Shown: positions 22,798 to 43,060, counted from the first letter of the stretch. The stretch: DNA of 64,000 bases from an uncultured delta proteobacterium (GCA_963727445.1 CAVSGI010000020.1:192001-256000), one strand, 5' to 3'. The notes: generated by a model not told the origin, from the letters alone. Numbers and translations are program-made.

Positions 22798-22902
22798 TGA
22801 AACGTTCTGCAACGCCGGCGACCCCCGTTGAAACGCTGGGCGGAGAGCCCGAGCACAAAACGCCACCGGATCAGGCGCCTTCGAGCTAGCACGATTGTTG
22901 AA
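22798..22902 (+). promoter_or_regulatory. Degenerate sigma-54-like promoter with upstream TG(A/C)AACG boxes, before usp
   Basis: TAGCACGATTGTTGAA at 22887-22902 (both GG and GC altered); TGCAACG at 22808 and TGAAACG at 22829. Confidence 0.4.
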
Positions 22903-22917
22903 GCTGATCCGGACTCC

Positions 22918-23703
22918 ATGGTCCGCATCGCGCATGCCGCCGCCCTGACGGATGAAGACGTCGTGCCTTTCGCGCACGGGGTGGCGCTCGCGCGCGCCAG
23001 TGGGGGCAAGCTCTTTTCGATCCACGCTCGGCAGCGTGGCGAGGGAAGCGCCACCTTGCCGGACGCTTCCGTGGTGTTGGCCAGCTGGGGCGACGCTGCC
23101 AGCGAGGTCGACGTTCAGGCTGCGGCGCACGATTGCTGCGACGATCCGGTCGACACCTTTCTCGACGCGCTCGCGAAGGTGCGTCCCGACCTGGTGATCA
23201 CCGCCACGCATCAGCGCGAAGGGATCGCTCGCGCGCTGTTCGGAAGCCGCGCCGAGGCGATCGCCCACAACGTGGCGGTGCCAACGCTCTTTCTCCCGGT
23301 CGGGGTCGACGGTTTCGTCTCGCGCGTGGACGGTCGCATCGACTTGAGCCGCATTCTGGTGCCGCTCGGCGACCCGACGGAGGCCCAGGCAGCGGTGAGC
23401 GCAGCCGTATCTCTGGCCCGAATGGCGGGCGCCACCTCGGTCGAGCTGACCCTCCTTCACGTCGGATCGCCCCAGAGCGCGCCGCCAGTGGAAGTTCCCA
23501 TCGCCGACGACTGGGTCGTGCGCCGTATCGACGTGGAGAAGGGGAAGCTCGAGGACGCCATTTTGAGTCACGCCCGAGACGCGCGGCTCGTCGTCATGGC
23601 GACGCGCGGTCACGACTCTCTTGGGGACGTGCTGCGCGGCAGCCACACCGACCGCGTCCTGCACCGAGCCAGGTGCCCGGTCCTCTCGGTCCCCGTCATC
23701 TAG
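22918..23703 (+). CDS. Tandem universal stress protein
   Basis: Two USP domains: DLVITATHQREGIARALFGSRAEAI and LVVMATRGHDSLGDVLRGSHTDRVLHRARCPVLSV. Confidence 0.9.
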   Translation: MVRIAHAAALTDEDVVPFAHGVALARASGGKLFSIHARQRGEGSATLPDASVVLASWGDAASEVDVQAAAHDCCDDPVDTFLDALAKVRPDLVITATHQREGIARALFGSRAEAIAHNVAVPTLFLPVGVDGFVSRVDGRIDLSRILVPLGDPTEAQAAVSAAVSLARMAGATSVELTLLHVGSPQSAPPVEVPIADDWVVRRIDVEKGKLEDAILSHARDARLVVMATRGHDSLGDVLRGSHTDRVLHRARCPVLSVPVI

Positions 23704-23726
23704 GCCCGGCTGGCGCGCATCGAAGC

Positions 23727-24158
23727 ATGGAACACTTCACCCCCATCGCATCGACCCTCGGTGGGATCCTGATCGGGATCAGCTCCGTGATGCTGCTCGT
23801 CTTCAACGGGCGCATCGCAGGCGTCAGCGGCGTGGCCGGCAAGATCATCGGCGGAACCAGGGGCGACATCGCCTGGCGTGTCGCCTTCGTCGTAGGGCTG
23901 GTGATCGCCGGCATCGGCGCCTCTCTGGTCGCGCCGAATCTCATGGATGTCGGCCTGGAGCGGTCGCCCGTCGCCATCGCGCTCGCCGGGCTCCTGGTCG
24001 GTTTCGGGACGAGGCTCGGCTCGGGCTGTACGAGCGGACACGGCGTCTGTGGTCTCGGGCGCCTCTCGGTGCGTTCTCTCGCTGCGGTGCTGACCTTCAT
24101 GGCATCCGGCGCCGCCGTCGTGTTCCTGGTTCGCACCATCTTCGGGGGCTCGGTATGA
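23727..24158 (+). CDS. Small YeeE/YedE sulfur-transport membrane protein (PmpA-like)
   Basis: NGRIAGVSG; GLLVGFGTRLGSGCTSGHGVCG; four TM segments. Confidence 0.92.
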   Translation: MEHFTPIASTLGGILIGISSVMLLVFNGRIAGVSGVAGKIIGGTRGDIAWRVAFVVGLVIAGIGASLVAPNLMDVGLERSPVAIALAGLLVGFGTRLGSGCTSGHGVCGLGRLSVRSLAAVLTFMASGAAVVFLVRTIFGGSV

Positions 24159-24610
24159 AACGGATCGTCTTCGCGCTCGCCTCCGGGCTTCTCTTCGGCA
24201 TCGGTCTGGTCGTCGCCGGGATGACCCAACCCGCCAAGGTCGTGGGCTTCCTCGACTTCGGCGGCGACTGGGATCCGAGCCTGGCCTTCGTGATGGGAAG
24301 TGCGTTTCTCGTCTATGCCGCCGGATACCGGTGGGTTGCGCGTCGAGGGCGACCCCTCTTCGACGACATGCTCCACCTCCCCAATCGGCGCGACATCGAC
24401 CTCCCCCTCCTCGCCGGGGCCGTGCTCTTCGGAGCCGGTTGGGGCCTGGCGGGCTACTGCCCGGGACCGGCCATCGTCGCCATGGGGACCGGCGGCTTTC
24501 GGGGCCTGCTCTTCGGGGCCGCCATGGTAATCGGCATGTCCCTGCATCAGGCGACGATCGCCCGGGGTGCACCGGGTCCCGACGTTCGAAAGCACGGCGA
24601 GACCGCGTGA
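24155..24610 (+). CDS. Small YeeE/YedE-like membrane protein (PmpB/DUF6691-like)
   Basis: GMTQPAKVVGFLDFGGDWDPSLAFVM; GWGLAGYCPGPA; ATGA overlap with the previous gene. Confidence 0.9.
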   Translation: MKRIVFALASGLLFGIGLVVAGMTQPAKVVGFLDFGGDWDPSLAFVMGSAFLVYAAGYRWVARRGRPLFDDMLHLPNRRDIDLPLLAGAVLFGAGWGLAGYCPGPAIVAMGTGGFRGLLFGAAMVIGMSLHQATIARGAPGPDVRKHGETA

Positions 24611-24643
24611 GCCCACCACGGATTCGTGCTTACCTCGCATGCG

Positions 24644-25928
24644 ATGAGCGCAAGCGATGACACCGTGCTTCTGGCGTTGGAAGAATTGGGGGGGCCTGCG
24701 ATGGTCCTCGACGACTCTCTCCGCGTCATCCTGGCCACGAAGGGCGCCCACGCGCTGGTAGGCACACCGATCGAAAAGGGCACCCTCGCGCCCGCGATCC
24801 TCTGCGGCGAGGGGCCCGAGCGACCCGTCGCCGAGGCGCTGGCGGCGGGCAGGTCGGTCAACGCCTACGTCCACCGTCCGGCGGCAGACGGCGAGCGCAT
24901 CATCCGGGTGCGCGCGACGCCACTCGAGACCGGCTACCTGCTCCTGTTGGACGAAGAGGGCGAATCGGGTGAGGACGAGGTCGCGAAGAAGTGGGGCGTC
25001 ATCACGCGCGACCCCGCCATGCGCCAGCTCCTCCGCGACGTCGAAAAGGTCGGCCGGAGCGAGAGCTCGGTCCTGGTGCGCGGGGAGACGGGCACCGGCA
25101 AGGAGCTGGTCGCCCGGGCGCTGCACGAATCGTCTCCGCGCGCCGAAGGCCCGTTCCGCGCCATCAACTGCGCGGCGCTTCCCGCGAGCCTCCTCGAGAG
25201 TGTGCTCTTCGGGCACGTGCGCGGGGCCTTCACCGGCGCCGTGCGTGACGAGCCGGGGCAGGTGCGCCTCGCGGACGGCGGCACCCTCTTCCTCGACGAG
25301 GTGGCGGAGCTGCCGCTCGATCTTCAGGCCAAGCTACTGCGTGTCCTGCAGGAGCAGTCGGTCATCCCCGTGGGCGGACAATCCAGTCGCGGTCGACGTG
25401 CGTTTCGTGAGCGCGACGCACCAGTCACTTCGGGCCGCCGTGGCCGATGGCCGCTTCCGCGAAGACCTGATGTACCGGCTGCGCGTCATCCCGCTCTATC
25501 TCCCGCCGCTGCGCGAGCGGCGCGGCGACATCGCCTTGCTGGTCGATCGCTTCATTCAGGAGCTCAACGGACGATTCGAACGCAGCGTGGAGCGCGTCAC
25601 GCCGGGCGCCATCTCCGCGCTCGAGGACTACGACTGGCCCGGCAACGTCCGTGAGCTTCACAACGCCATCGAGTACGCCTTCGTGATGGGCGAGGGGACG
25701 ATGCTCACAGAGGCCGAGCTGCCACCGGAGCTGCGCGACGGAGAAATCCGTGGCGCGGTCCCGATGGTCAACGCGCCGGTGGTGGACCCATCCCTGCCTC
25801 CCGAAGCGCGACGCATCGCCACCGCGCTCGAGCGTGCTGGTGGACATCACGCCCGCGCCGCGGCCGCGCTCGGGATGAGCCGCACTACCCTCTGGCGGCG
25901 CATGAAAAAGTACGGCCTCGAGAGTTGA
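24644..25928 (+). CDS. Sigma-54 enhancer-binding protein with a PAS-like N-terminus; frameshift near 25376
   Basis: [20 protein letters not shown]; second frame continues [17 protein letters not shown] and Fis [15 protein letters not shown]. Confidence 0.9.
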
Positions 25929-26090
25929 GCCGCACGACGGAGGCGACGGAGCGCTGGCGTCGTCACATCGACAAGTTGCTGGATGTGGGCTAGAGGAGGC
26001 GACGACTGCGCGTGGGTCCCGGCGTGCGTGCGGTCAAAGGGGCCCCGATTGGACTCGATAGACAGACAACGCTCGGTCGTCAGCGACTCC

Positions 26091-27080
26091 GTGCGACCAC
26101 CGCTTTCGCGGCTGACCACGCGGTCCGGAAAGGAGTTGCCTCCTCTCGTTCTGGGGACCGCTGCGCTCGGTAGCATCGACCCGACCGGCCTCTGGGGCCG
26201 TGGCGAGCGGCGCCGCGCCTTCGAGCTCCTGGACAGCGTCTTCGAAGAAGGCTGCAGGGCGTTCGACCTCGCGCGTTCGTACAAGGTCGGCGGAACAGAG
26301 CGTGTCTTCGGTGAGTGGCTGCGCCGCTCCGGTGTTCGCGAAGAGATCTTCATCCTGTCGAAGGCAGGCCATCCCTTCCCGGTGATCGCGCCGAATCGCC
26401 TGGGAACGCCTGCGCTCGAGCAGGACCTCTTCACGACCCTGCGGCTCCTGGGCGTCGAATATGTCGACTCGTGGATGCTGCACCGGGACCACGAAGAGGT
26501 GGCGCTCTCCCGCCTCGCCGCCGACCTCGCGCGTTTCGCCGCGGAGGGATTCACGCGTTTCACTGGTGTCTCCAACTGGACCTTCGAGCGCATCACCAGT
26601 CTGGAGGACGCGTCTGCGCACTCGGTGGTGCACGCGTCGAGCCCTCAGTTCTCGCTGGCTGCCTGGAAGGCCTCTCCGTGGCAGGGGTGCTGGAGCATTT
26701 CGGGGCGCAAGCATCGTTACGAACGGCGGCAGTACGCGAGGGCTTCGATGCCCGTCTTCGCCTATTGCGCGCTCGGTCAGGGCTTCCTTACGAGCAAGCG
26801 TGGCCGCGCGCAGCGCGGTCCGTTTCATCAGCGCGCCAGTGTCGAACAGCGTCAGCGTTGTGCCGACCTGGCGAGTCGCCGCGGAACGACGACGGCACAA
26901 GTGGCGCTCGCGTACCTGCTGAACCAACCATTTCCCGTGTTTCCGATCGTCGGTGTGAGTCGTCGGGGACGCATGCGGGAGAATCTGGAGGCCGTGGCGA
27001 TCGAGCTGAGCAGCGAGGAGCTGGCCTGGCTGGAGGATGCGGCGCGGCCGCTGGAGCACGTGCACGAGGTTCGAACGTGA
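26091..27080 (+). CDS. Aldo/keto reductase (start approximate)
   Basis: LVLGT, FDLARSY, ILSKAGHP, YVDSWMLHRD, GVSNW, AQVALAYLLNQPFPVFPIVG. Confidence 0.88.
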   Translation: MRPPLSRLTTRSGKELPPLVLGTAALGSIDPTGLWGRGERRRAFELLDSVFEEGCRAFDLARSYKVGGTERVFGEWLRRSGVREEIFILSKAGHPFPVIAPNRLGTPALEQDLFTTLRLLGVEYVDSWMLHRDHEEVALSRLAADLARFAAEGFTRFTGVSNWTFERITSLEDASAHSVVHASSPQFSLAAWKASPWQGCWSISGRKHRYERRQYARASMPVFAYCALGQGFLTSKRGRAQRGPFHQRASVEQRQRCADLASRRGTTTAQVALAYLLNQPFPVFPIVGVSRRGRMRENLEAVAIELSSEELAWLEDAARPLEHVHEVRT

Positions 27081-28732
27081 AGGCTTCCGCCCGAGGGTCC
27101 AACCGCGAGTGGGATGCGATCGTCGTCGGCTCGGGCGCGACCGGAGGCGTGGCCGCCAAGGCGCTCGCGGAGCGCGGCCTGAGCGTGCTGGTGTTGGAAG
27201 CGGGCAAGCCGGTGGACGCCGCAAAGGGCTACGGGAATGGCGTGAAGAACACGGCGCGGCAGCTGCTTCGCCGCGTCGTGACGAAGCGCCAGACCGTCCA
27301 ATCGCGTCACGCCACTTACTGGACGACCAATCCCGACTTCTTCGTCGATGATGTCGACAACCCCTACAGCGCCCCACCGGACAGGCCTTTCTACTGGGTC
27401 CGTGGTCGTGTTCAGGGCGGGCGCACGCTCACCTGGGACGGCGTGACCCCCCGGCTCTCCGACTACGAGTTTCACGCAGCCTCCCGGGACGGCGTCGGTA
27501 TCGACTGGCCCATCGGGCACGCGGACCTCGCACCCTACTACGAGCGCCTCGAGCGCTACTTCGGGATCCACGGACACCGGGATGGCCTGGCGGCGATCCC
27601 GGACGGTGCGTTCGTCGGAGAGAAAGCGCTCACCGAAGCCGAGCGGGTGTTTCAACGGCGGGTCGCCGAGGAGATGCCCGAACGCCACGTCGTCGTCTCA
27701 CGAGGGATCGCCGCGGGGCGCCGGCCACCGAAGCGGCGCCAGCACTCGGGCTTGTCGAACCTCTCCACCACGTTGCGCGATGCGGCGAAGACCGGGCGCG
27801 CCGAGCTCCTCACCGGGGCCATCGCCAGCCGGATCCTGCTCTCCTCCGACGGGAACCGGGCTGCCGGTGTGGAGTGGGTCGATGCGGATTCCCGCACGGT
27901 TCACGCCTCACATGCCTCGCTCGTCTTTCTCTGCGCTTCCACCATCGAATCCGTTCGATTGCTCCTCAACTCGCATACCAACCAGCACCCGAACGGGATC
28001 GGCGGATCCTCCGGCCATCTGGGCCGGTACTTGATGGATCATGTGGCCTGCAACCTCTACTTCCAACTTCCGGACGTGGCTGCCAGCGGAAGAGCGCATC
28101 CACTGCAAGGGAGCGACGCCTTTCTGGTGCCCCGTTTTCAGAATCTGGGCGATCAGGACAGCGACCATCTCCGAGGCTACGGAATGTGGGGCGGGATCGA
28201 GCGCATCTTCATGCCTCAGTTCGTGCGCAGGCTGCCCGGAGAGGCGTTCGGTTTCATCGTGGCGCGCGGAGAGGTGCTGCCGCATCCCGACAATCGAATC
28301 GAGATCGATGCCGAGCTCGAAGACGCGTGGGGCATCCCCGCGGTGCGCATCGACTGCGAGTGGAAGGAAAACGATCGCCGCGTGGCGGCGGCCGCACGTC
28401 GAACCGCGATCGAGATGATCGAAGCCGCAGGGGGAGAGGTCGCCAACATCGGCGAGTGGGTTCACCCGACGGTGGGGAACGTCTTGTCGCGCGTGCTCCA
28501 CGAGTGGCGCGTGTCCACGCCGGGTCTCTTCGCACACGAGTTGGGCGGTGCCCGAATGGGAAGCTCGAGGGAGGACTCGGTGGTCGACCGCAATTGCGCC
28601 GTCTGGGACGTGCCGAATCTCTTCGTCACCGATGGCGCCTGTTGGCCGTCCTCGGGGTGGCAGAATCCGACGCTGACCGAGATGGCCGTCACCGCCCGGG
28701 CGGTCGACCTGGCGGCGGCCGCGCGTCCCTGA
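27077..28732 (+). CDS. GMC family FAD oxidoreductase
   Basis: DAIVVGSGATGG, GGRTLTW, LGRYLMDH, HELGGARMG, NLFVTDGA, QNPTLTEMA; GTGA overlap with the AKR gene. Confidence 0.92.
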   Translation: MKASARGSNREWDAIVVGSGATGGVAAKALAERGLSVLVLEAGKPVDAAKGYGNGVKNTARQLLRRVVTKRQTVQSRHATYWTTNPDFFVDDVDNPYSAPPDRPFYWVRGRVQGGRTLTWDGVTPRLSDYEFHAASRDGVGIDWPIGHADLAPYYERLERYFGIHGHRDGLAAIPDGAFVGEKALTEAERVFQRRVAEEMPERHVVVSRGIAAGRRPPKRRQHSGLSNLSTTLRDAAKTGRAELLTGAIASRILLSSDGNRAAGVEWVDADSRTVHASHASLVFLCASTIESVRLLLNSHTNQHPNGIGGSSGHLGRYLMDHVACNLYFQLPDVAASGRAHPLQGSDAFLVPRFQNLGDQDSDHLRGYGMWGGIERIFMPQFVRRLPGEAFGFIVARGEVLPHPDNRIEIDAELEDAWGIPAVRIDCEWKENDRRVAAAARRTAIEMIEAAGGEVANIGEWVHPTVGNVLSRVLHEWRVSTPGLFAHELGGARMGSSREDSVVDRNCAVWDVPNLFVTDGACWPSSGWQNPTLTEMAVTARAVDLAAAARP

Positions 28733-28737
28733 GCCGC

Positions 28738-29694
28738 TCAGAGGCCGAGCTCGCGCATCTTGCGCCAGAGCGTGGTGCGACTCATGCCGAGGCGTGTGGC
28801 CGCCTCGCCCTTTCGTCCGCCGGTCGCGTCGAGGGCCTCGAGAATGCGTGCGCGCTCGCGAGAGGCAGGAGACTCGCTGCTCGTCCGGCTGTCGGGCGGA
28901 GGTCCTTCGCCGCGGAGCTCCGGCGGTAGATCCGAGATGTCGATCTCCCGGCCCTGTCCAACCGCGAACGCGTAGGACAGCACGTTGCGCAGCTCGCGAA
29001 CGTTGCCCGGCCAGTCGTGTGCCAGGAGCGCGTTCATGGCGCTCGGGGTGAAGCTCTCCATCCGGTGGCTGCTCTCCCGGTTGAGCTCGTCGAGGAAGTG
29101 CCAGGCGAGCGCCTCCACGTCGCCCTCGCGCTCACGCAAGGGCGGCAAGAAGATCGGAACCACGCGGATGCGGTACATGAGGTCGGCGCGGAAGCGGCCG
29201 CGTTCGACCTCGCGCCTCAAGGCGCGATGTGTCGCGCTGACGATGCGAACGTCGACCTCGATCGGGTCGGTCGCGCCCACCGGCACGAAGCGCTTCTCCT
29301 GTAGGACGCGGAGCAGGCGCGCCTGGATATCCGGGTCGATCTCCGCCACCTCGTCGAGAAAGAGCGTCCCCCCATCCGCGCTCTGAAAGAGTCCGACCCG
29401 GTCGCGCACCGCCCCGGTGAACGCGCCGCGCACGTGCCCGAAGAGCTCCGAGGCGAGGAGCTCGGGCGTCAGCGTCGCGCAGTTGACGGCCTTGAAGGGG
29501 GCGCGGCTGCGCGGGGACAGCTCGTGGATGGCGCGGGCGACAAGCTCCTTGCCAGTGCCCGTCTCTCCACGCACCAACACCGCCGCGTCGGATTGAGCGA
29601 CCCGGCCGATGAGCTCGAAGAGCTCCAGCATCGCGGGCGCACGGCTGACCATGCCGTGGAAGAAGGTGAGAGAGGGACGGGGACGTTTCGTCAT
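28738..29694 (-). CDS. Sigma-54 enhancer-binding protein lacking a sensory domain (AAA+ and Fis HTH only)
   Basis: AAA+ begins ~12 aa after the start; [42 protein letters not shown]. Confidence 0.92.
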   Translation of the reverse strand: MTKRPRPSLTFFHGMVSRAPAMLELFELIGRVAQSDAAVLVRGETGTGKELVARAIHELSPRSRAPFKAVNCATLTPELLASELFGHVRGAFTGAVRDRVGLFQSADGGTLFLDEVAEIDPDIQARLLRVLQEKRFVPVGATDPIEVDVRIVSATHRALRREVERGRFRADLMYRIRVVPIFLPPLREREGDVEALAWHFLDELNRESSHRMESFTPSAMNALLAHDWPGNVRELRNVLSYAFAVGQGREIDISDLPPELRGEGPPPDSRTSSESPASRERARILEALDATGGRKGEAATRLGMSRTTLWRKMRELGL

Positions 29695-29696
29695 GT

Positions 29697-29801
29697 TGCA
29701 ACGATGTTGCGACAACATGAAACGGATGGGTGCGTCGGTCAACCTGACGTACTGAAATCATTTTGAAAAATGCTCAACAAGGCGGTGGCCCGGCATGTGC
29801 T
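29697..29801 (+). promoter_or_regulatory. Sigma-54 promoter with upstream activator boxes for the pdo-molybdoenzyme operon
   Basis: TGGCCCGGCATGTGCT (GG-N10-GC) at 29786-29801; TGCAACG 29697, palindrome ATGTTG-N3-CAACAT 29704-29718, TGAAACG 29718; AT-rich tract between. Confidence 0.75.
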
Positions 29802-29842
29802 CACCAGTGACCAGGACCCCTCTCCAGAAAAAGGCCAGGCTC

Positions 29843-30552
29843 ATGATCTTCCGCCAGCTCTTCGACCGCGAAACCAGCACCTACACCTATCTCCTGGGTG
29901 ACGAGGAGACCCGCGCAGCCGCCTTGATCGACCCCGTCCTCGAGCAGGTGGAGCGCGACCTTTCGCTCCTGGACGAGCTGGGCCTCAAGCTGACCTACGT
30001 CCTCGAGACGCACGTTCATGCCGACCACGTGACGGCCGCGAGCATCCTGCGCGAGCGCACCGGGGCACGCACGGTGGTCTCGGCCAACGCCGGCGCCGCA
30101 TGTGCCGACGTCACCGCGCACGACGGCGACGTGGTTCGCCTCGGCGGCGTCTCCATCGAGGTGCGGGAGACGCCGGGGCACACGAATGGCTGTCTGACGT
30201 ACGTCACGGCGGACCATCAGTATGCGTTCACCGGTGACGCGCTCTTCATCCGCGGCTGCGGCCGCACGGACTTCCAGGAAGGCGACAGCCGCACGCTCTA
30301 CCGTTCCGTTCACGACAAGATCTTCACGCTCCCCGACAGCTGCGCCATCTACCCCGGACACGACTACAAGGGGCGCACCCGTAGCAGCGTCGGCGAGGAG
30401 AAGCAGTTCAACCCCCGCCTCGGTGGCGAACGCAGCATCGACGACTTCGTCCAGATCATGGACGAGCTGAAGCTCGACCCTCCGAAGCGCATCGCGGTCA
30501 GCGTTCCCGCGAACCAGAACTGCGGTCGGCTCGAGACCGCGAGCCCCGCCCA

Positions 30553-30556
<4 letters not shown>
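29843..30556 (+). CDS. Persulfide dioxygenase, ETHE1-like MBL fold
   Basis: MIFRQLFDRETSTYTYLL, ETHVHADHVT, TPGHTNGC, FTGDALFIRGCGRTDFQ, YPGHDYKG, C-terminal VPANQNCG. Confidence 0.9.
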
Positions 30557-32232
<1,676 letters not shown>

Positions 32233-32240
32233 GGCCCCCC

Positions 32241-35210
32241 ATGAGCTCCACCGCCTCCACACTCGACTTCTTCGCGCGTCTCTTGCGCTTCTCGCGCACC
32301 GAGGTGCCGGCGGAAAAGACCGCTCCGGCGCCCACGGCCGACGTCATGCCTCAGCCCGAGTATGCCAAGACCGGAAAGAAGCCGGTCCGACTCGAGACCA
32401 TCCGACAGGCGGACGGACGCATCAGTCAGTATCCGCCCCCGTCGTCCTGGGACGAGTGGGTCGAGTGGGATTCGAAGTCCTGGCCCAAGAAGGTCGCGCG
32501 GCGCTACACGCTGGTTCCCACCATCTGCTTCAACTGCGAGAGCGGTTGCGGCCTGCTCGCCTACGTCGACAAAGACACCTACGACATCCGCAAGTTCGAA
32601 GGGAACCCCGCCCACCCGGGCAGCCGCGGGCGCAACTGTGCGAAGGGCCCCGCGACCCACAACCAGACCTACGACCCCGAGCGCATCCTCCACCCGCTGA
32701 AGCGCGTGGGTGAGCGAGGCGAGGGCAAGTGGAAGCGCGTGAGCTGGGACGAGGCGCTGACCGATATCGCCGCCAAGATGCGCGCCAGTCGCGAGAAGCG
32801 TCGCGACGGCATCATGTATCACGTCGGTCGTCCCGGCGAAGATCACTACGCCAACCGCGCGATCCAGAGCTGGGGTGTGGACGGTCACAACAGTCACACC
32901 AACATCTGCTCCGCCTCGGCCCGCGTGGGCTATTACATGTGGAGCGGCGCCGACCGCCCCAGTCCCGACTACGCCAACGCGCGCGCCACCGTGCTGGTGA
33001 GCGCGCACCTCGAGTCGGGCCACTACTTCAACCCGCACGCGCAGCGGATCATGGAAGGCAAGCGCGACGGGGCGAAGCTGATCGTCCTCGACCCGCGCCT
33101 GTCGAACACCGCGGCGCGCGCCGACGTGTGGCTGCCGACCTGGCCCGGGAGCGAAGCCACGGTCCTGCTCTCCATCGCGAGCTACCTCATTCAGAACGAG
33201 CTCTACGATCGAGACTTCGTTCGCAGGTGGGTGAACTGGGAGGACACGCTGAAGGCGGCCGAGTCCTTCGCGGTGGACGACGACGTCGTGGCGATCGCCC
33301 GTGAGGCCCGCGAGCATGCCGAGCAGAGCGGTGAATACCGCTTCGAAGACTTCGAGCGGTTCCTCTCCGCGCTCTACGACGAGTTCACCTTCGAGCGAGC
33401 GGCGGAGGAGTCGCAGGTGCCGGTCGAGCGCCTGCGGGCCGCGGCCGAGGCCATCGCCGAAGCGGGCAACCGCGTCAGTGGCCACACCTGGCGCAGCGCG
33501 ACCATGGGCAACCGCGGCGGCTGGCAGGTGGCGCGCGCGCTCTTCTTCCTCAGCGTGCTCACCGGAAGCGTCAGCACCAAGGGCGGCACCGGCCTGAACA
33601 GCAACAACAAGTTCGTCCCCAAGCCCATCTCCACCCCCGATCAGCTCGATGTGTGGAACGAGCTGCACCTGCCGCACGAGTGGCCGCTCGCGATGTACGA
33701 GATGAGCTTCCTGTTGCCGCACTTCCTGGAGGAGGGGCGCGGCGACGTCGACGTCTACTTCACCCGCGTCTACAACCCGATGTGGATCAACCCCGACGGC
33801 TTCATGTGGATGAAGGCGCTCCGGGACGAATCGAAGATCAAGTGCCACGTCGCGCTCACGCCCACCTGGAACGAGAGCGCGTGGTTCGCCGACTACGTGC
33901 TGCCCATGGGGCACTCCGGCGAGCGGCACGACATCATGAGCCAGGAGACCCACGCCGGGCAGTGGATCGGTTTCCGGCAGCCGGTGCGCCGGGTGGCGAT
34001 GGAGCGCGCCGGCATCCCGGTGAAGCGCACCTACGAAGCCAACCCCGGTGAGGTCTGGGAGGAGTCGGAGCTCTGGATCGATCTGAGCTGGAAGCTCGAC
34101 CCCGACGGGAGCCTCGGCATCCGCCAGCACTTCGAGAGCCGCGAGCGCCCCGGCGAGCCCATCACCATGGACGAGTACTGGGGTCACATCTTCGAGCACA
34201 GCGTGCCGGGTCTGCCCGAGCGCGCGGCCGAGGAAGGTCTCACCCCCCTCGCGTACATGCGGAAGTACGGCGCCTTCGAGGTGAGCCGGGACGTGTACGA
34301 GCCCCACGAATCACGCGCGTCGAGTGACGGCGTCGACATCGACGGGGTCGAGCGCCAGGGTTTCAAGACGCCGAGCAAGAAGCTAGAGCTCTTCAGCCCG
34401 ACCCTCTCCGAGTGGGGCTGGCCCGAGCAGCAGTACGTCATCCCGTGGACGCTCGAGAGCCACGTGGCGCGCTCCAACATCGCCCAGGACGAGGGCGAGA
34501 TGCTGCTCCTTCCCACCTTCCGCCTGCCCACCCTGATCCACACCCGCTCCGCAAACGCGAAGTGGCTCTACGAGATCAGCCACAAGAACCCGGTGTGGAT
34601 GCATCCGAAAGATGCGGAGCGCCTCGGCGTGCAGACCGGCGATCTGATCCGGGTGACCACCGAGATCGGCTACTTCGTCGATCGTGCCTGGGTGACCGAG
34701 GGCATCAAGCCCGGGATCATCGCCATGAGCCATCACCTGGGGCGCTGGCGCCTCAAGGAGGGTGATGGCATCGGCGCCGGGATGAGCAACCTGGTGACAC
34801 TCGAAGAACGCGAGGGCGAGCACGAGCTCCACGTCGTCCACGGCGCCCGCGCGTGGAAGTCGCCCGACCCGGACACCAGCCGCGTGTGGTGGGAGGACGT
34901 CGGCGTCCATCAGAACCTCACTCACGCGGTGCATCCCGATCCGGTGAGCGGTGCCCACTGCTGGCACCAGAAGGCGCTCCGGGTGGAGAAGGCGAAGCCC
35001 AGCGACCGTCACGGTGACGTGTCGGTCGACACCAAGCGCTCGATGGCGGTCTATCGCGAGTGGCTGGCCCTCGCGCGCTCCGCGGTGGATCATTCTCCCG
35101 ACGGGACGCGCCGGCCGTACTGGCTGAAGCGGCCGCTGAAGCCGACCAAGAAGGCGTACGCGCTCCCCGCCCATCCCTGGGGCCGCGAGCCCCGCGCCGA
35201 GAGCGAATAG
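32241..35210 (+). CDS. Mo/W-bisPGD oxidoreductase catalytic subunit (Psr/Phs/Arr-like, Cys ligand), no Tat signal
   Basis: CFNCESGC...NCAKG FS0 motif, SWDEAL, HNSHTNICS, DPRLSNTA, ADYVLP, VWMHPKDAERLGVQTGD. Confidence 0.9.
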   Translation: MSSTASTLDFFARLLRFSRTEVPAEKTAPAPTADVMPQPEYAKTGKKPVRLETIRQADGRISQYPPPSSWDEWVEWDSKSWPKKVARRYTLVPTICFNCESGCGLLAYVDKDTYDIRKFEGNPAHPGSRGRNCAKGPATHNQTYDPERILHPLKRVGERGEGKWKRVSWDEALTDIAAKMRASREKRRDGIMYHVGRPGEDHYANRAIQSWGVDGHNSHTNICSASARVGYYMWSGADRPSPDYANARATVLVSAHLESGHYFNPHAQRIMEGKRDGAKLIVLDPRLSNTAARADVWLPTWPGSEATVLLSIASYLIQNELYDRDFVRRWVNWEDTLKAAESFAVDDDVVAIAREAREHAEQSGEYRFEDFERFLSALYDEFTFERAAEESQVPVERLRAAAEAIAEAGNRVSGHTWRSATMGNRGGWQVARALFFLSVLTGSVSTKGGTGLNSNNKFVPKPISTPDQLDVWNELHLPHEWPLAMYEMSFLLPHFLEEGRGDVDVYFTRVYNPMWINPDGFMWMKALRDESKIKCHVALTPTWNESAWFADYVLPMGHSGERHDIMSQETHAGQWIGFRQPVRRVAMERAGIPVKRTYEANPGEVWEESELWIDLSWKLDPDGSLGIRQHFESRERPGEPITMDEYWGHIFEHSVPGLPERAAEEGLTPLAYMRKYGAFEVSRDVYEPHESRASSDGVDIDGVERQGFKTPSKKLELFSPTLSEWGWPEQQYVIPWTLESHVARSNIAQDEGEMLLLPTFRLPTLIHTRSANAKWLYEISHKNPVWMHPKDAERLGVQTGDLIRVTTEIGYFVDRAWVTEGIKPGIIAMSHHLGRWRLKEGDGIGAGMSNLVTLEEREGEHELHVVHGARAWKSPDPDTSRVWWEDVGVHQNLTHAVHPDPVSGAHCWHQKALRVEKAKPSDRHGDVSVDTKRSMAVYREWLALARSAVDHSPDGTRRPYWLKRPLKPTKKAYALPAHPWGREPRAESE

Positions 35211-36206
35211 ATGCTTTCCGACGCGGAAAAGGCCTGGGGGCGCGGCCGAGCGTACGCGCTGCTCGCCGAGCTGGTGGCGCGCGGTATCACCGAGGCGAAC
35301 GCCGAGGCCGCCCGCGCGAGCGACGGCATCGCGCAGGCGCTGTCGAGCTATCCGAACGCCGACGACGCAGCGGCTGACCATCACTTCGTCTTCGGGCTCT
35401 CGGTCCCGCCGCAGGAGGGCGCGTTCCTCGATGCGCGTGGCGAGGTGGGCGGTTCGCTCACCGACCGCCTCCGGGACGCCTACGCCGAGCTCGGCGTGGC
35501 CCACGACCCGCGGGGGGAGGGCGCCGAGCACCTCGCCACTGAGCTTCGCGCGCTCGGCTTCGCGTCGGCGACCGAAGCCGTGCACCTCGATCAAGAGCGA
35601 AGCGCCGAGGCTGCTGAGATGCGCGCCCGCGCGCGCCGCTTCCTCGACCGGCACCTCTTGCGATGGCTGCCCAGCTTCGCAGCGACGGTCCGAAGCACGG
35701 CGCGCCCCTTCCCAGAGGCCGTCGTGGCCCAGATCGTCGACGTGGTTTACGACCACCGGAGCGAGCTGGGCGCCGCCGACGAGGAGGATCTCGACTTCGC
35801 CCTGGCCGGCGACCCTCTCGACCTCGACGACGATTCGGTCGGCGTTCGAGAGATCGCCGCCGCGCTCTCCGTGCCCGCGCGCGTGGGCCTCTTGGTCAGC
35901 CGAGAGGACGTCGCCGCCGTCGGCCGGCGCCATCGCGTGCCGCGCGGCTTCGGCGAGCGACGCACCTTGATCCACAACCTGCTCCGCTCGTCGGTTTCAC
36001 TCGGTGCCTTCGCGCCCACCATCGACGAGCTGCGCGCACTGCTCGCCTCCCGCAGCCACGCGCTCGAAGACGCGCGCAACGCGCAGGTGCCTGGCCTCGC
36101 GCGCCTCACCGCGCCTTGGATCGCACGCATCCAGAACACCGACGCGGCCCTCGCCCGTCTCGCGAACGAGAGCCTCGCATCGCAGCGGCCATCCACCGCG
36201 CCATGA
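35211..36206 (+). CDS. TorD/DmsD family maturation chaperone with a C-terminal extension
   Basis: VPPQEGAF, AEHLATELRAL (DH-motif variant), RRFLDRHLLRWLPSF; starts directly after the molybdoenzyme stop. Confidence 0.8.
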   Translation: MLSDAEKAWGRGRAYALLAELVARGITEANAEAARASDGIAQALSSYPNADDAAADHHFVFGLSVPPQEGAFLDARGEVGGSLTDRLRDAYAELGVAHDPRGEGAEHLATELRALGFASATEAVHLDQERSAEAAEMRARARRFLDRHLLRWLPSFAATVRSTARPFPEAVVAQIVDVVYDHRSELGAADEEDLDFALAGDPLDLDDDSVGVREIAAALSVPARVGLLVSREDVAAVGRRHRVPRGFGERRTLIHNLLRSSVSLGAFAPTIDELRALLASRSHALEDARNAQVPGLARLTAPWIARIQNTDAALARLANESLASQRPSTAP

Positions 36207-36279
36207 CCTCCGCGGTCGCCGACTCTCACCGAAACGGTCCGGGCTGAAGGTTCACCCGGTGGAAACAGCGCCATCCGGC

Positions 36280-36353
36280 TGAAACGGAGCGCGTCTCAGC
36301 CCGTTTCGAGGTCCGTGGAAATCAGCCCCTTTTCTCCTGGCATGCGGGGTGCA
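36280..36353 (+). promoter_or_regulatory. Sigma-54 promoter of the second MBL/PDO gene
   Basis: TGGCATGCGGGGTGCA (GG-N10-GC) at 36338-36353; TGAAACG at 36280; IHF-like AATCAGCCCCTTT at 36320. Confidence 0.72.
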
Positions 36354-36379
36354 CATGTCAGGGGATGAGGAGACGCCCC

Positions 36380-37252
36380 ATGAACGTCAAAGCATTCTTC
36401 GATGCCCCCACCTGGACGGTCACTTACGTCGTCTGGGATCCCGAAACGAAGGACGCGGTCATCATCGACCCGGTGTTGGGCTACGACACGATCGGGTCGC
36501 AGACCGACCACGCGCAGATCGAGACGCTGGTCTCCTTCGCCCGAGACAACGGCCTCAGGGTACGTTTCGTCCTCGAGACGCACGCGCACGCCGACCATCT
36601 CACCGCTGCCCAACACCTCAAGCGCCGACTCGAGGCAGAGGTGGCCATCGGCGAGCGGATCACCACGGTGCAGAAGACGTTCAAGAAGATCTTCGATCTG
36701 CCGGAGGACTTCCCGACGGATGGAAGCCAGTTCGACCGGCTCCTCGGCGATGGGGAGGTGCTCGAGGCAGGCAGCCTTCGCATCGAGACGATCCATACGC
36801 CGGGGCACACGCCGGCCTGTGTGACCTACAAGATCGACGACGCGATCTTCACGGGTGACGCGCTCTTCATGCATGACTACGGCACCGGGCGTTGCGACTT
36901 CCCGGCTGGAAGCGCCTCCGATCTCTACGACTCGATCCAGAAGCTCTACGCGCTTCCCGACGAGACGCGCGTCTTCGTCGGTCACGACTACGCGCCCGGT
37001 GGCCGCGAGCCCGCATGGGAGACGACCATCAGCCGCGAGAGGGCCGAGAATCCACAGCTGAACGGTACCACGACGAAGGAGCAGTTCGTGCGGATGCGCG
37101 AGGCGCGGGACGCGACCCTCAAGGCGCCCCGCCTCATCTTCCAGAGCGTGCAGGTCAACGTGGACGCCGGGCGCCTCCCCACGCCTGCGGGCAACGGTCG
37201 CCGCTACCTGAAGCTGCCCATCAACCTCTTCGGAGGCCCCGAAGAGGTCTGA
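36380..37252 (+). CDS. Persulfide dioxygenase, Blh/type II-like MBL fold
   Basis: [50 protein letters not shown]...[20 protein letters not shown]. Confidence 0.9.
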
Positions 37253-37291: not shown

Positions 37292-38296
37292 GTGAAGTGG
37301 GGGATGGGCTCTGTGGCGCTCGTGCTATTCGCGGCCGTTTCGGCGGCGGCGCAACCCCGGCAGATCACCGCGCGCGGCGACATGCTGATGTGCGAGTCAT
37401 CCGGCTGTACGGCGGCGGGTGCGCCTTGCCCATATGGCGTGGGAGAAGGCACCTGCGACGCGCCGGTCGGCGATGCGTTGCTCTGCATCGGCGCCGGTCA
37501 CACCACGGAGCCGCAGTGCTGCACCACCGATTCCGAATGTCCATCGACATCGCAGTGCTGGCATGTCGATGGCGAAGACTTCGGCGTGTGCCTCGGCCCA
37601 GACAGCCCACCGCTGACCTTCTGCGCCGACCCATCGGCGCTCACCTCGCTCGATCTCGTTCGGTGCCGCGACGGCACATACGCATCGACATACGACTGGG
37701 GACACGGCGATTGTGACGGTGACGGGATGCCGAACACCGACGACCCCATGCCCTGCGAGGGCACACCAATCTGCGCATGTGACGCCGACGTCGTGAAGGA
37801 TCCCTCTTCCCCATATCAGGTGAACCTCACGGACGTGGGGGCGTTCAGCGTGTGCCTTCGCGACCCGACCTCCCCCGACTGCATGGGAACCGACGTCAAC
37901 TGCGACGGCGAGATCGACCTCTGCGATGCGGCCATCGTCGCCCAGGTGATGGCTCGCGGCTACACTCAGCCCGAGCCCTTCCTCTGTGCGCAGATCGAAT
38001 GTGGAGGTTGCGAGACCAGCGATGGGTGCGTGCGAACGAGCCAGGACTACTGCACGCGGAGCCTGATGGGCACCTACCGCCCGCGCTGCCGAGCCCCAGC
38101 CGATGGCGGCACCGACGCGTCCGTCGCGGACTCTGGCGCTGCCGACACGCGTCGTGGTTCCGACGCGGAGCCCGCGACCTTCCGGGGGGCCGGAGGCTGC
38201 GCATGTCGTCTCGGGGCTCGCGACCAGAACCCCGCCGGCCCGGCGCTCTTCCTGGTCCTCCTCCTCGTCGCCCTCCGGTTGCGCAAAACTGCCTGA
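37292..38296 (+). CDS. Secreted Cys-rich protein with Ca-binding-like motifs and a MYXO-CTERM-like tail
   Basis: Signal peptide; DCDGDGMPNTDD, DVNCDGEIDLCD; FRGAGGCAC + hydrophobic helix + RLRK. Confidence 0.75.
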   Translation: MKWGMGSVALVLFAAVSAAAQPRQITARGDMLMCESSGCTAAGAPCPYGVGEGTCDAPVGDALLCIGAGHTTEPQCCTTDSECPSTSQCWHVDGEDFGVCLGPDSPPLTFCADPSALTSLDLVRCRDGTYASTYDWGHGDCDGDGMPNTDDPMPCEGTPICACDADVVKDPSSPYQVNLTDVGAFSVCLRDPTSPDCMGTDVNCDGEIDLCDAAIVAQVMARGYTQPEPFLCAQIECGGCETSDGCVRTSQDYCTRSLMGTYRPRCRAPADGGTDASVADSGAADTRRGSDAEPATFRGAGGCACRLGARDQNPAGPALFLVLLLVALRLRKTA

Positions 38297-43044: not shown

Positions 43045-43060
43045 TGGCATCGCGGTTGCT
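43045..43060 (+). promoter_or_regulatory. Sigma-54 -24/-12 promoter
   Basis: TGGCATCGCGGTTGCT matches TGGCA-N6-TTGCW. Confidence 0.8.

Follow-up and report, generated by a model that had tools for sequence, protein, structure and literature searches.

A PSRLC3-type molybdoenzyme between two persulfide dioxygenase genes: a probable cytoplasm-facing sulfite:quinone oxidoreductase in a myxobacterium-like genome

Introduction

What does a quinone-linked molybdoenzyme do between two persulfide dioxygenase (PDO) genes? The question is raised by a locus at positions 22798-37252 of a 64,000-nucleotide stretch of DNA (the window) from an uncultured delta proteobacterium (GCA_963727445.1, CAVSGI010000020.1:192001-256000). 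An earlier note, made from the sequence alone, described the locus as one sigma-54-controlled sulfane-sulfur island in which the enzyme fills the position usually held by sulfide:quinone oxidoreductase (SQR) or rhodanese, either oxidising the sulfite made by PDO or making or consuming polysulfide. In this study, we find that by its sequence the molybdoenzyme is a member of the PSRLC3/psrBC-psrA family. On the same kind of evidence, it probably completes persulfide oxidation as a cytoplasm-facing sulfite:quinone oxidoreductase.

Results

The enzyme is encoded by two genes on the plus strand. The first (30553..32232) specifies a 4Fe-4S electron-transfer domain fused to an NrfD/PsrC-type anchor (PF13247 and PF03916; PsrBC type), and the second (32241..35210) the molybdenum-bis(pyranopterin guanine dinucleotide) (Mo-bisPGD) catalytic subunit. 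PSRLC3 is reported to be encoded by two genes (PMC5473276), with a psrBC fusion upstream of psrA and no twin-arginine (Tat) signal, and was proposed to oxidise the sulfite made by Dsr (PMC3906813); two other papers likewise treat it as an inferred sulfite oxidase (PMC9324843; PMC6338057). The family is known from green sulfur bacteria, Marinimicrobia, Chloroflexota and haloarchaea (PMC3906813; PMC9324843; PMC5473276; PMC6338057). The window enzyme has the same make-up: two genes, a PsrB-PsrC fusion before A, no Tat signal on A, and a place in one clade with dsr-linked copies. It matches protein P0091 of Chloroherpeton thalassium at 69% identity. A search of the phylum of this organism found the enzyme in 45 of 301 genomes, and in many members the same two genes lie 8-9 kb upstream of dsrN-dsrC-dsrA-dsrB, with 55% identity over ~940 aa to the window subunit. 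In the tree (LG+G4, 18 rows; a quick tree had the same topology) the family forms one clade with 100/100 support that includes the dsr-linked L115 (L117 in the quick trees); we infer that the L115 and L117 genomes are green sulfur bacteria. The locus thus holds one more PSRLC3 member with a tidy regulatory layout, and not a new kind of system. It differs from the dsr-linked copies in that its partner is PDO instead of Dsr, torD follows, sigma-54 activators are present, and the host is likely a heterotroph of the Myxococcota without an aprA match. No title or abstract opening among the papers that literature searches returned joins the PSRLC3 family to PDO, although the texts and supplements of primary papers may mention such neighbours. 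The module had been called little-described, which holds for the PDO link; the enzyme itself has been published as PSRLC3/psrBC-psrA, together with a proposed role in sulfite oxidation.

The catalytic subunit reached the cut-off of none of the NCBIfam models for better-known relatives (PhsA NF012032, 215 of 694 bits; ArrA, 116 of 1600; TtrA, 106 of 1750; formate dehydrogenase, 168 of 666). The last score rejects the label formate dehydrogenase, under which family members are often annotated. In the trees the family stands apart from SoeA-like, PhsA/PsrA-like, ArrA-like and Ttr-like references, all of which are stand-ins and not assayed proteins; the ArrA-like ones are themselves below the model cut-off, and the SoeA-like ones (L195, L196) were picked by likeness to an xsc-adjacent locus. 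The rows exclude the truncated L162, L159 and L138, L026 (no open reading frame recovered) and redundant family members. Sister to the family is an enzyme of Azoarcus sp. KH32C (support 99/98; 31.6% identity over 897 aa). Approximately unbiased (AU) tests rejected joint clades with the SoeA-like (p 0.009), PsrA/PhsA-like (p 0.001) and ArrA-like (p 0.003) references; because these tests keep the Azoarcus enzyme outside, all they establish is that no reference group is as near to the family as that enzyme. The phylogeny that the earlier note had suggested against PsrA, PhsA, SoeA, ArrA and TtrA separates the family from every stand-in, and places it beside an arsenic-island enzyme.

The Azoarcus enzyme (L137:5245-10405, on pAZKH) shares the order B-C-A-TorD with the window but differs in its twin-arginine signal, its unfused B and C, and its arsenic-resistance context, beside acr3 and an oxyanion-binding two-component system. 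It is possibly AnrA-like. A 38% homologue on a plasmid of Sulfurovum mangrovi (L138:7001-10157), unannotated and in two pieces, has a twin-arginine N-terminus in another frame and is possibly an exported intermediate branch. The Azoarcus sister, with its acr3 neighbour, raises the alternative that the window enzyme acts on a non-sulfur oxyanion of the arsenic or antimony type, or on an organic substrate, and hitchhikes with sulfur genes. The best fold match in a structure model (predicted local distance difference test 82) points the same way: the model has a DMSO-reductase-family fold, nearest ArrA and PsrA at ~20% identity, with ArrA the best match. Some family loci also lack sulfur neighbours. 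We nevertheless regard this alternative as very improbable, given the low ArrA score and the frequency of sulfur markers (34 of 43 loci, compared with 0 of 20 controls; see below); no arsenic genes were noticed in the family loci read, though no census was aimed at them. A published table of the wider enzyme family also contains unnamed lineages with a Cys ligand (PMC10100899).

The earlier note had described a Tat-less, quinone-linked enzyme, and both properties are borne out as predictions. A motif scan found the twin-arginine motif in 0 of 120 homologues, and none was seen by eye in the window's catalytic subunit. The membrane anchor has ~8 hydrophobic segments, with conserved Lys/Arg on the Fe-S side in 56 sequences. 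From the missing Tat motif, the fused Fe-S domain and this positive-inside bias, we predict a quinone-linked complex on the cytoplasmic side of the membrane. In this it resembles SoeABC of Allochromatium vinosum and Aquifex aeolicus, a cytoplasm-facing Mo-bisPGD subunit with an Fe-S protein and an anchor, for which the same reaction is proposed. SoeABC, however, is encoded by three genes in the order A-B-C with a DmsC-type anchor, whereas the window has BC-A with NrfD; identity to a SoeA-like reference is ~25%, in the N-terminal half, and the window subunit lies outside the SoeA/bSreA clade. The enzyme most likely works like SoeABC, judging from these sequence features, though it stands outside that family.

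The likeness to PsrABC and PhsABC lies in the active site and the partners. An alignment of 36 proteins shows no variation at C96, C99, C103 and C133 (FS0) or at C223. The last of these aligns with PsrA C173, which we take to be the Mo ligand. The best PDB sequence match of the catalytic subunit is PsrA (E 1e-41); the fusion protein matches 2vpw_B (E 7e-58), its B domain being nearest PsrB. PsrABC and PhsABC are Tat-exported, face the periplasm and are encoded by three genes, in contrast to the two-gene, Tat-less window enzyme, and identity is 23-27%. The enzyme could still be a cytoplasm-facing quinol:polysulfide (sulfane-sulfur) reductase, which at low oxygen would reduce the persulfides that PDO oxidises under oxygen. 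Apart from the PsrA and PsrB matches, this alternative has on its side that the family has been read as Psr-related (PMC3906813) and that genes for rhodanese, TusA and DsrE carriers often lie nearby. One scaffold can moreover do both reactions, since bacterial SreA, a cytoplasmic protein, groups with SoeA (PMC10100899). A polysulfide reductase would, however, share a predicted promoter with an oxygen-dependent PDO, the PhsA score is far from its cut-off, and the pattern with AprA and the 28 of 43 loci with SulP, both described below, would be left unexplained. We therefore consider this activity unlikely.

The two PDO genes flank the enzyme, as the earlier note had proposed, with type I on the 5' side and type II on the 3' side by their PDB matches. 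The gene pdo1 (29843..30556, +) encodes a type I, ETHE1-like protein with the HxHxDH metal motif; it matches 5ve3 (E 1e-84), 4ysb (6e-81) and human ETHE1 (4e-78), with the type II protein 4ysk at just 1e-28, and is nearer to ETHE1 and 4ysb than to type II or glyoxalase II (TIGR03413, 114 of 201 bits). The gene pdo2 (36380..37252, +) encodes a type II protein that is nearer to 4ysk (E 1.5e-86; 4efz, 5.5e-85) than to type I. Its earlier label, Blh or type II PDO, stands for type II and falls for Blh: pdo2 has a Blh-like dioxygenase domain and no rhodanese domain, it covers only positions 143-423 of the model NF040641 (363 bits, under the cut-off of 625), and in contrast to Blh, a bifunctional sulfur transferase/dioxygenase, it lacks the N-terminal sulfur-transferase domain. 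Both PDO types around the enzyme were found at 0 of 81 other loci. The run described previously as overlapping or abutting was recovered: pdo1 and the fusion gene overlap by GTGA, 8 nt separate the latter from the catalytic subunit gene, and a 0-nt gap follows before a TorD/DmsD-type maturation chaperone gene (35211..36206, +; PF02613). TorD stands beside 34 of 43 related loci. MobA gave only a below-cut-off match in the window's genome.

We examined the neighbourhood of the enzyme in related loci. The family is widespread: a search scored 8,000 proteins, and 51 of 401 genomes sampled from the window's phylum have a member. Others occur in Rhodothermales, Anaerolineae and Gemmatimonadales, and at 50-58% in Thermomicrobium, Rhodococcus and haloarchaea. 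The nearest named relatives are mostly Myxococcota, in agreement with the myxobacterium-like host suggested before. From a first set of 79 loci, 36 with less than 5 kb on a side were dropped; of the 43 kept, 34 have a sulfur marker (SulP 28, PDO of any type 22, YeeE 14, SQR 12, rhodanese 8, TauE 3), the SQR-like proteins being judged by likeness and lying below the type III cut-off. The survey thus found the PDO and YeeE links outside the window as well. A marker was present at 20 of 20 loci of a second set (20 of the 45 matches from the phylum of C. thalassium, chosen for long contigs), at 7 of 14 of a third set from the window's phylum (20 of 51 matches minus five duplicates and one short locus) and at 2 of 4 loci on named plasmids. 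Controls gave 0 of 20 arbitrary windows of enzyme-carrying genomes and 9 of 459 tiles cut from the window's genome. This contrast is inflated, since the loci supplied the marker queries and many of them are related to one another.

The partners of the family vary between PDO, Dsr and LipS/GcvH-like lipoate genes, and PDO and Dsr share sulfite as their product. A PDO-linked copy lies on plasmid pRHL3 of Rhodococcus jostii RHA1, with three metallo-beta-lactamase-fold proteins, DsrE and TusA. Members at L113:15450-19346 and L116:89-6426 stand beside LipS1, LipS2-like, lipoate-ligase-like and GcvH-like genes, or beside Hdr-like, GcvH and DsrE-like genes, which suggests a third kind of sulfur-oxidation partner. 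On a Thermomicrobium roseum plasmid, a gene annotated as metal-sensitive transcriptional regulator (L133:7129-7407) is directly 5' of the two-gene enzyme; presumably it may be a CstR-type persulfide sensor.

Does the enzyme replace SQR? The block search matched neither SQR nor rhodanese within the locus, as previously stated, but the idea that the enzyme fills their position was not upheld. The genome search for sqr that had been suggested found a type III SQR elsewhere (618 bits against the NF049943 cut-off of 525), the genome also has a PDO-rhodanese fusion, and 12 of the 43 related loci hold both SQR and the enzyme. With SQR present in the genome and beside those 12 loci, the enzyme more likely acts downstream of PDO. 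Two genes follow that for the type III SQR (L080:4549-7339, on G000:C4): one encodes a protein whose C-terminal domain is of the TusE/DsrC kind, the other a DsrE2-like protein. The three likely form a sulfide entry module. The PDO-rhodanese fusion, a third PDO and of type I, lies at L081:6207-7244 (G000:C9). A SulP gene at L082:6608-8244 (G000:C9), is frameshifted and unlinked to the operon; its product shares ~60% identity with the SulP encoded after torD in L026.

Other sulfite-oxidising routes were also sought. The window's genome (85.6% complete) gave no sulfite-oxidase-family, close SoeA or aprA match; the aprA model matched in no control genome of that run, though the same model did match 15 genomes in the sample of the dsr-bearing phylum. 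In that 301-genome sample, 47 genomes have dsrA; 29 of them carry only the enzyme, 12 only aprA, 1 both and 5 neither. Among the 30 enzyme copies in dsrA genomes, 15 lie within 10 kb of dsrA. Such near-exclusion is, as a genomic pattern, what would be expected of two alternative sulfite-oxidising routes and not of polysulfide reduction. Together with the sulfur neighbours at 34 of 43 loci it favours the SoeABC-like role among the two options offered before. It also bears on another activity, in which the enzyme would act on thiosulfate, tetrathionate, an S-sulfonate or another oxyanion of the PDO pathway, cleaving it to sulfite and to sulfane sulfur for another round. Sulfite and sulfane sulfur do give thiosulfate in SQR/PDO pathways (PMC9774590; PMC12345210), YeeE proteins import thiosulfate (PMC9774590), and the Cys-ligated relatives include PhsA and TtrA. 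Such an enzyme would not substitute for AprA, however, and the window subunit is far under the PhsA and TtrA cut-offs. Quinol-driven thiosulfate reduction is also uphill, which counts further against this activity, and we judge it to be quite improbable.

The sigma-54 control claimed for the island is predicted for both PDO units and not for usp. Predicted -24/-12 promoters at 29786..29801 (+) and 36338..36353 (+) each lie just 5' of a PDO gene, the first serving the pdo1 operon and the second pdo2; a pattern scan found none before usp. The pattern was widened at one position after the sites had been seen, and two matches somewhere in the window arose in 4 of 100 shuffles; the promoter argument therefore rests on position and conservation. 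A -24/-12-like site is present 5' of the equivalent gene in 12 of 13 relatives examined (the L044 region did not reach the promoter position), and rpoN is present in the window's genome. A further good match lies outside the locus at 43045-43060 (+). A scan for sigma-70 promoters and terminators gave nothing useful.

Two sigma-54 activators are encoded in the locus. Activator 2 (28738..29694, -; 318 aa), divergent from the enzyme operon, has intact Walker A/B and GAFTGA motifs and no sensor domain, a short form shared by all 20 aligned loci (window included). Cys residues upstream of it were considered as a sensor and rejected as translated activator sites. Its start codon abuts tandem TGTTGC(A/G)AC repeats (29695..29723, +), a predicted upstream activator sequence that is kept in L001, L002, L004, L026, L033 and L062. 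Activator 2 likely drives the pdo1 operon and, because its start codon abuts these sites, would repress its own gene. Related TG(A/C)AAC motifs cluster before usp and pdo2: there are 27 in the 64 kb, three of them (22798..22834, +; likely activator-binding sites by motif scan) in the 166-nt gap 5' of usp, and a TGAAAC motif stands at 36280. Activator 1 (24644..25928, +) combines a PAS-like domain, which in the window contains a single Cys, with an AAA+ domain and a Fis helix-turn-helix. Its coding sequence is split between two frames near 25380, with 2 nt fewer than in L001, a relative in which the gene is intact. An assembly error is plausible, because 3 of 41 comparable places in the assembly show a frameshift (activator 1, sulP and, judged by eye, a metH gene). 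Two DNA runs of small share yielded only short pieces. If the frameshift is an assembly error, the PAS-type activator 1 may bring in a sulfur signal. In G684 (L216:8975-15020), pdo2, sulP, pdo1, a PAS-type activator like activator 1, and sqr are clustered, the activator gene lying between pdo and sqr; no molybdoenzyme match was found in 20 kb. A sigma-54 activator beside pdo genes recalls the FisR/sigma-54 pdo-sqr operon of Cupriavidus pinatubonensis, in which the PDO partner is SQR and not a molybdoenzyme. FisR is described as sensing via three conserved cysteines (PMC9774590); compared with this description, activator 2 lacks a sensor, and the PAS-like domain of activator 1 contains a single Cys in the window.

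All genes named in the earlier note were found in the locus in the same order (Pfam and NCBIfam profiles, PDB sequence comparison), but the block is not conserved as one island. Its conserved core consists of activator 2, pdo, BC, A and torD. The universal stress protein gene usp (22918..23703, +; PF00582) is a peripheral member. It is followed by a split YeeE/YedE sulfur-transport protein, presumably PmpAB-like, whose first half (23727..24158, +; PF04143) overlaps the second, DUF6691 half (24155..24610, +; PF20398, 150 bits) at ATGA. The genome G305, from the same genus and 86% complete, has the two activator genes side by side; usp and yeeE-yedE sit elsewhere, on other contigs, and the genome yielded no type II PDO. 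In G609 a separate cluster, ~30 kb from the enzyme, holds yeeE-yedE, sulP, pdo2 and usp, with a 47% usp homologue following the type II PDO. This cluster makes it likely that usp and yeeE share a regulon with the enzyme. The aldo-keto reductase (AKR; 25983..27080, +; PF00248; start uncertain, first ATG taken) and the GMC oxidoreductase (27077..28732, +; PF05199/PF00732) are passengers. They had been read as one AKR-GMC unit, and were rejected as a fusion or a module part: they are two separate genes, and usp, AKR and GMC stand beside the enzyme at 0 of 81 related loci. The pair occurs in G718 and G711 without sulfur markers, and in G711 (L224:1057-7050) it directly adjoins secA, which in the window is 3 kb away. 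Beyond pdo2, 37292-38296 (+) encodes a Cys-rich protein without a Pfam or NCBIfam match, with a signal-like N-terminus and a C-terminal tail of GC, hydrophobic and basic residues that we assume to be of the myxobacterial sorting type.

Discussion

The core of the locus is likely a sigma-54-driven operon. In the pathway that we propose, sulfide would enter via the type III SQR encoded elsewhere and sulfane sulfur via YeeE/YedE. The oxygen-dependent PDO would turn cytoplasmic persulfides into sulfite, which would be oxidised to sulfate by oxygen-atom transfer at the Cys223-ligated Mo. Electrons would pass from FS0 through the Fe-S clusters to the NrfD quinone site and the quinone pool, and sulfate would leave via SulP. 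Such a route would recover energy from the PDO path and keep sulfite from draining into thiosulfate.

Several observations weigh against sulfite oxidation or this pathway. In print, the family is also filed with the polysulfide and thiosulfate reductases, with a substrate that is not determinable from sequence (PMC3906813). Its closest relative is the arsenic-island enzyme of Azoarcus and not a sulfite oxidase. The neighbourhood contrast is inflated, as stated above, and 9 of 43, 7 of 14 and 2 of 4 plasmid loci lack a sulfur marker. No SulP gene was found in this block, and the presence of SulP gives no direction of transport. The exclusion of AprA (p=1.3e-6) is overstated because the dsrA genomes are kin, and most of these genomes are drafts of untold completeness. 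Of the 45 enzyme-bearing genomes in that sample, 15 lack dsrA. Finally, activator 1 is broken as assembled.

It is tempting to speculate further. PSRLC3-type enzymes might be cytoplasmic sulfite:quinone oxidoreductases that evolved separately, from arsenic/antimony-type enzymes, and serve any source of sulfite, be it Dsr, PDO or lipoate-linked. In myxobacteria they would have come under a sigma-54 regulon with a sensorless activator, which turns persulfide detoxification into the respiration of sulfide to sulfate. For this broader proposal we see the arguments as evenly balanced.

Conclusions

The less familiar part of this locus is the tie of the enzyme to PDOs, since the enzyme family is widespread and was already noted in green sulfur bacteria. 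A sediment survey reports PDO in 1,818 metagenome-assembled genomes (MAGs), a recognised sulfite-oxidising route in just 12.1% of all MAGs, and Myxococcota that carry mainly PDO (PMC12345210). If sulfite oxidation is the true function, the family would be a missed marker that closes part of this gap between PDO and sulfite oxidation. The copy on pRHL3 makes the PSRLC3 proposal testable in a cultured aerobe, Rhodococcus jostii RHA1. If the proposal is true, heterotrophs such as the likely host of this locus would gain energy from sulfite.

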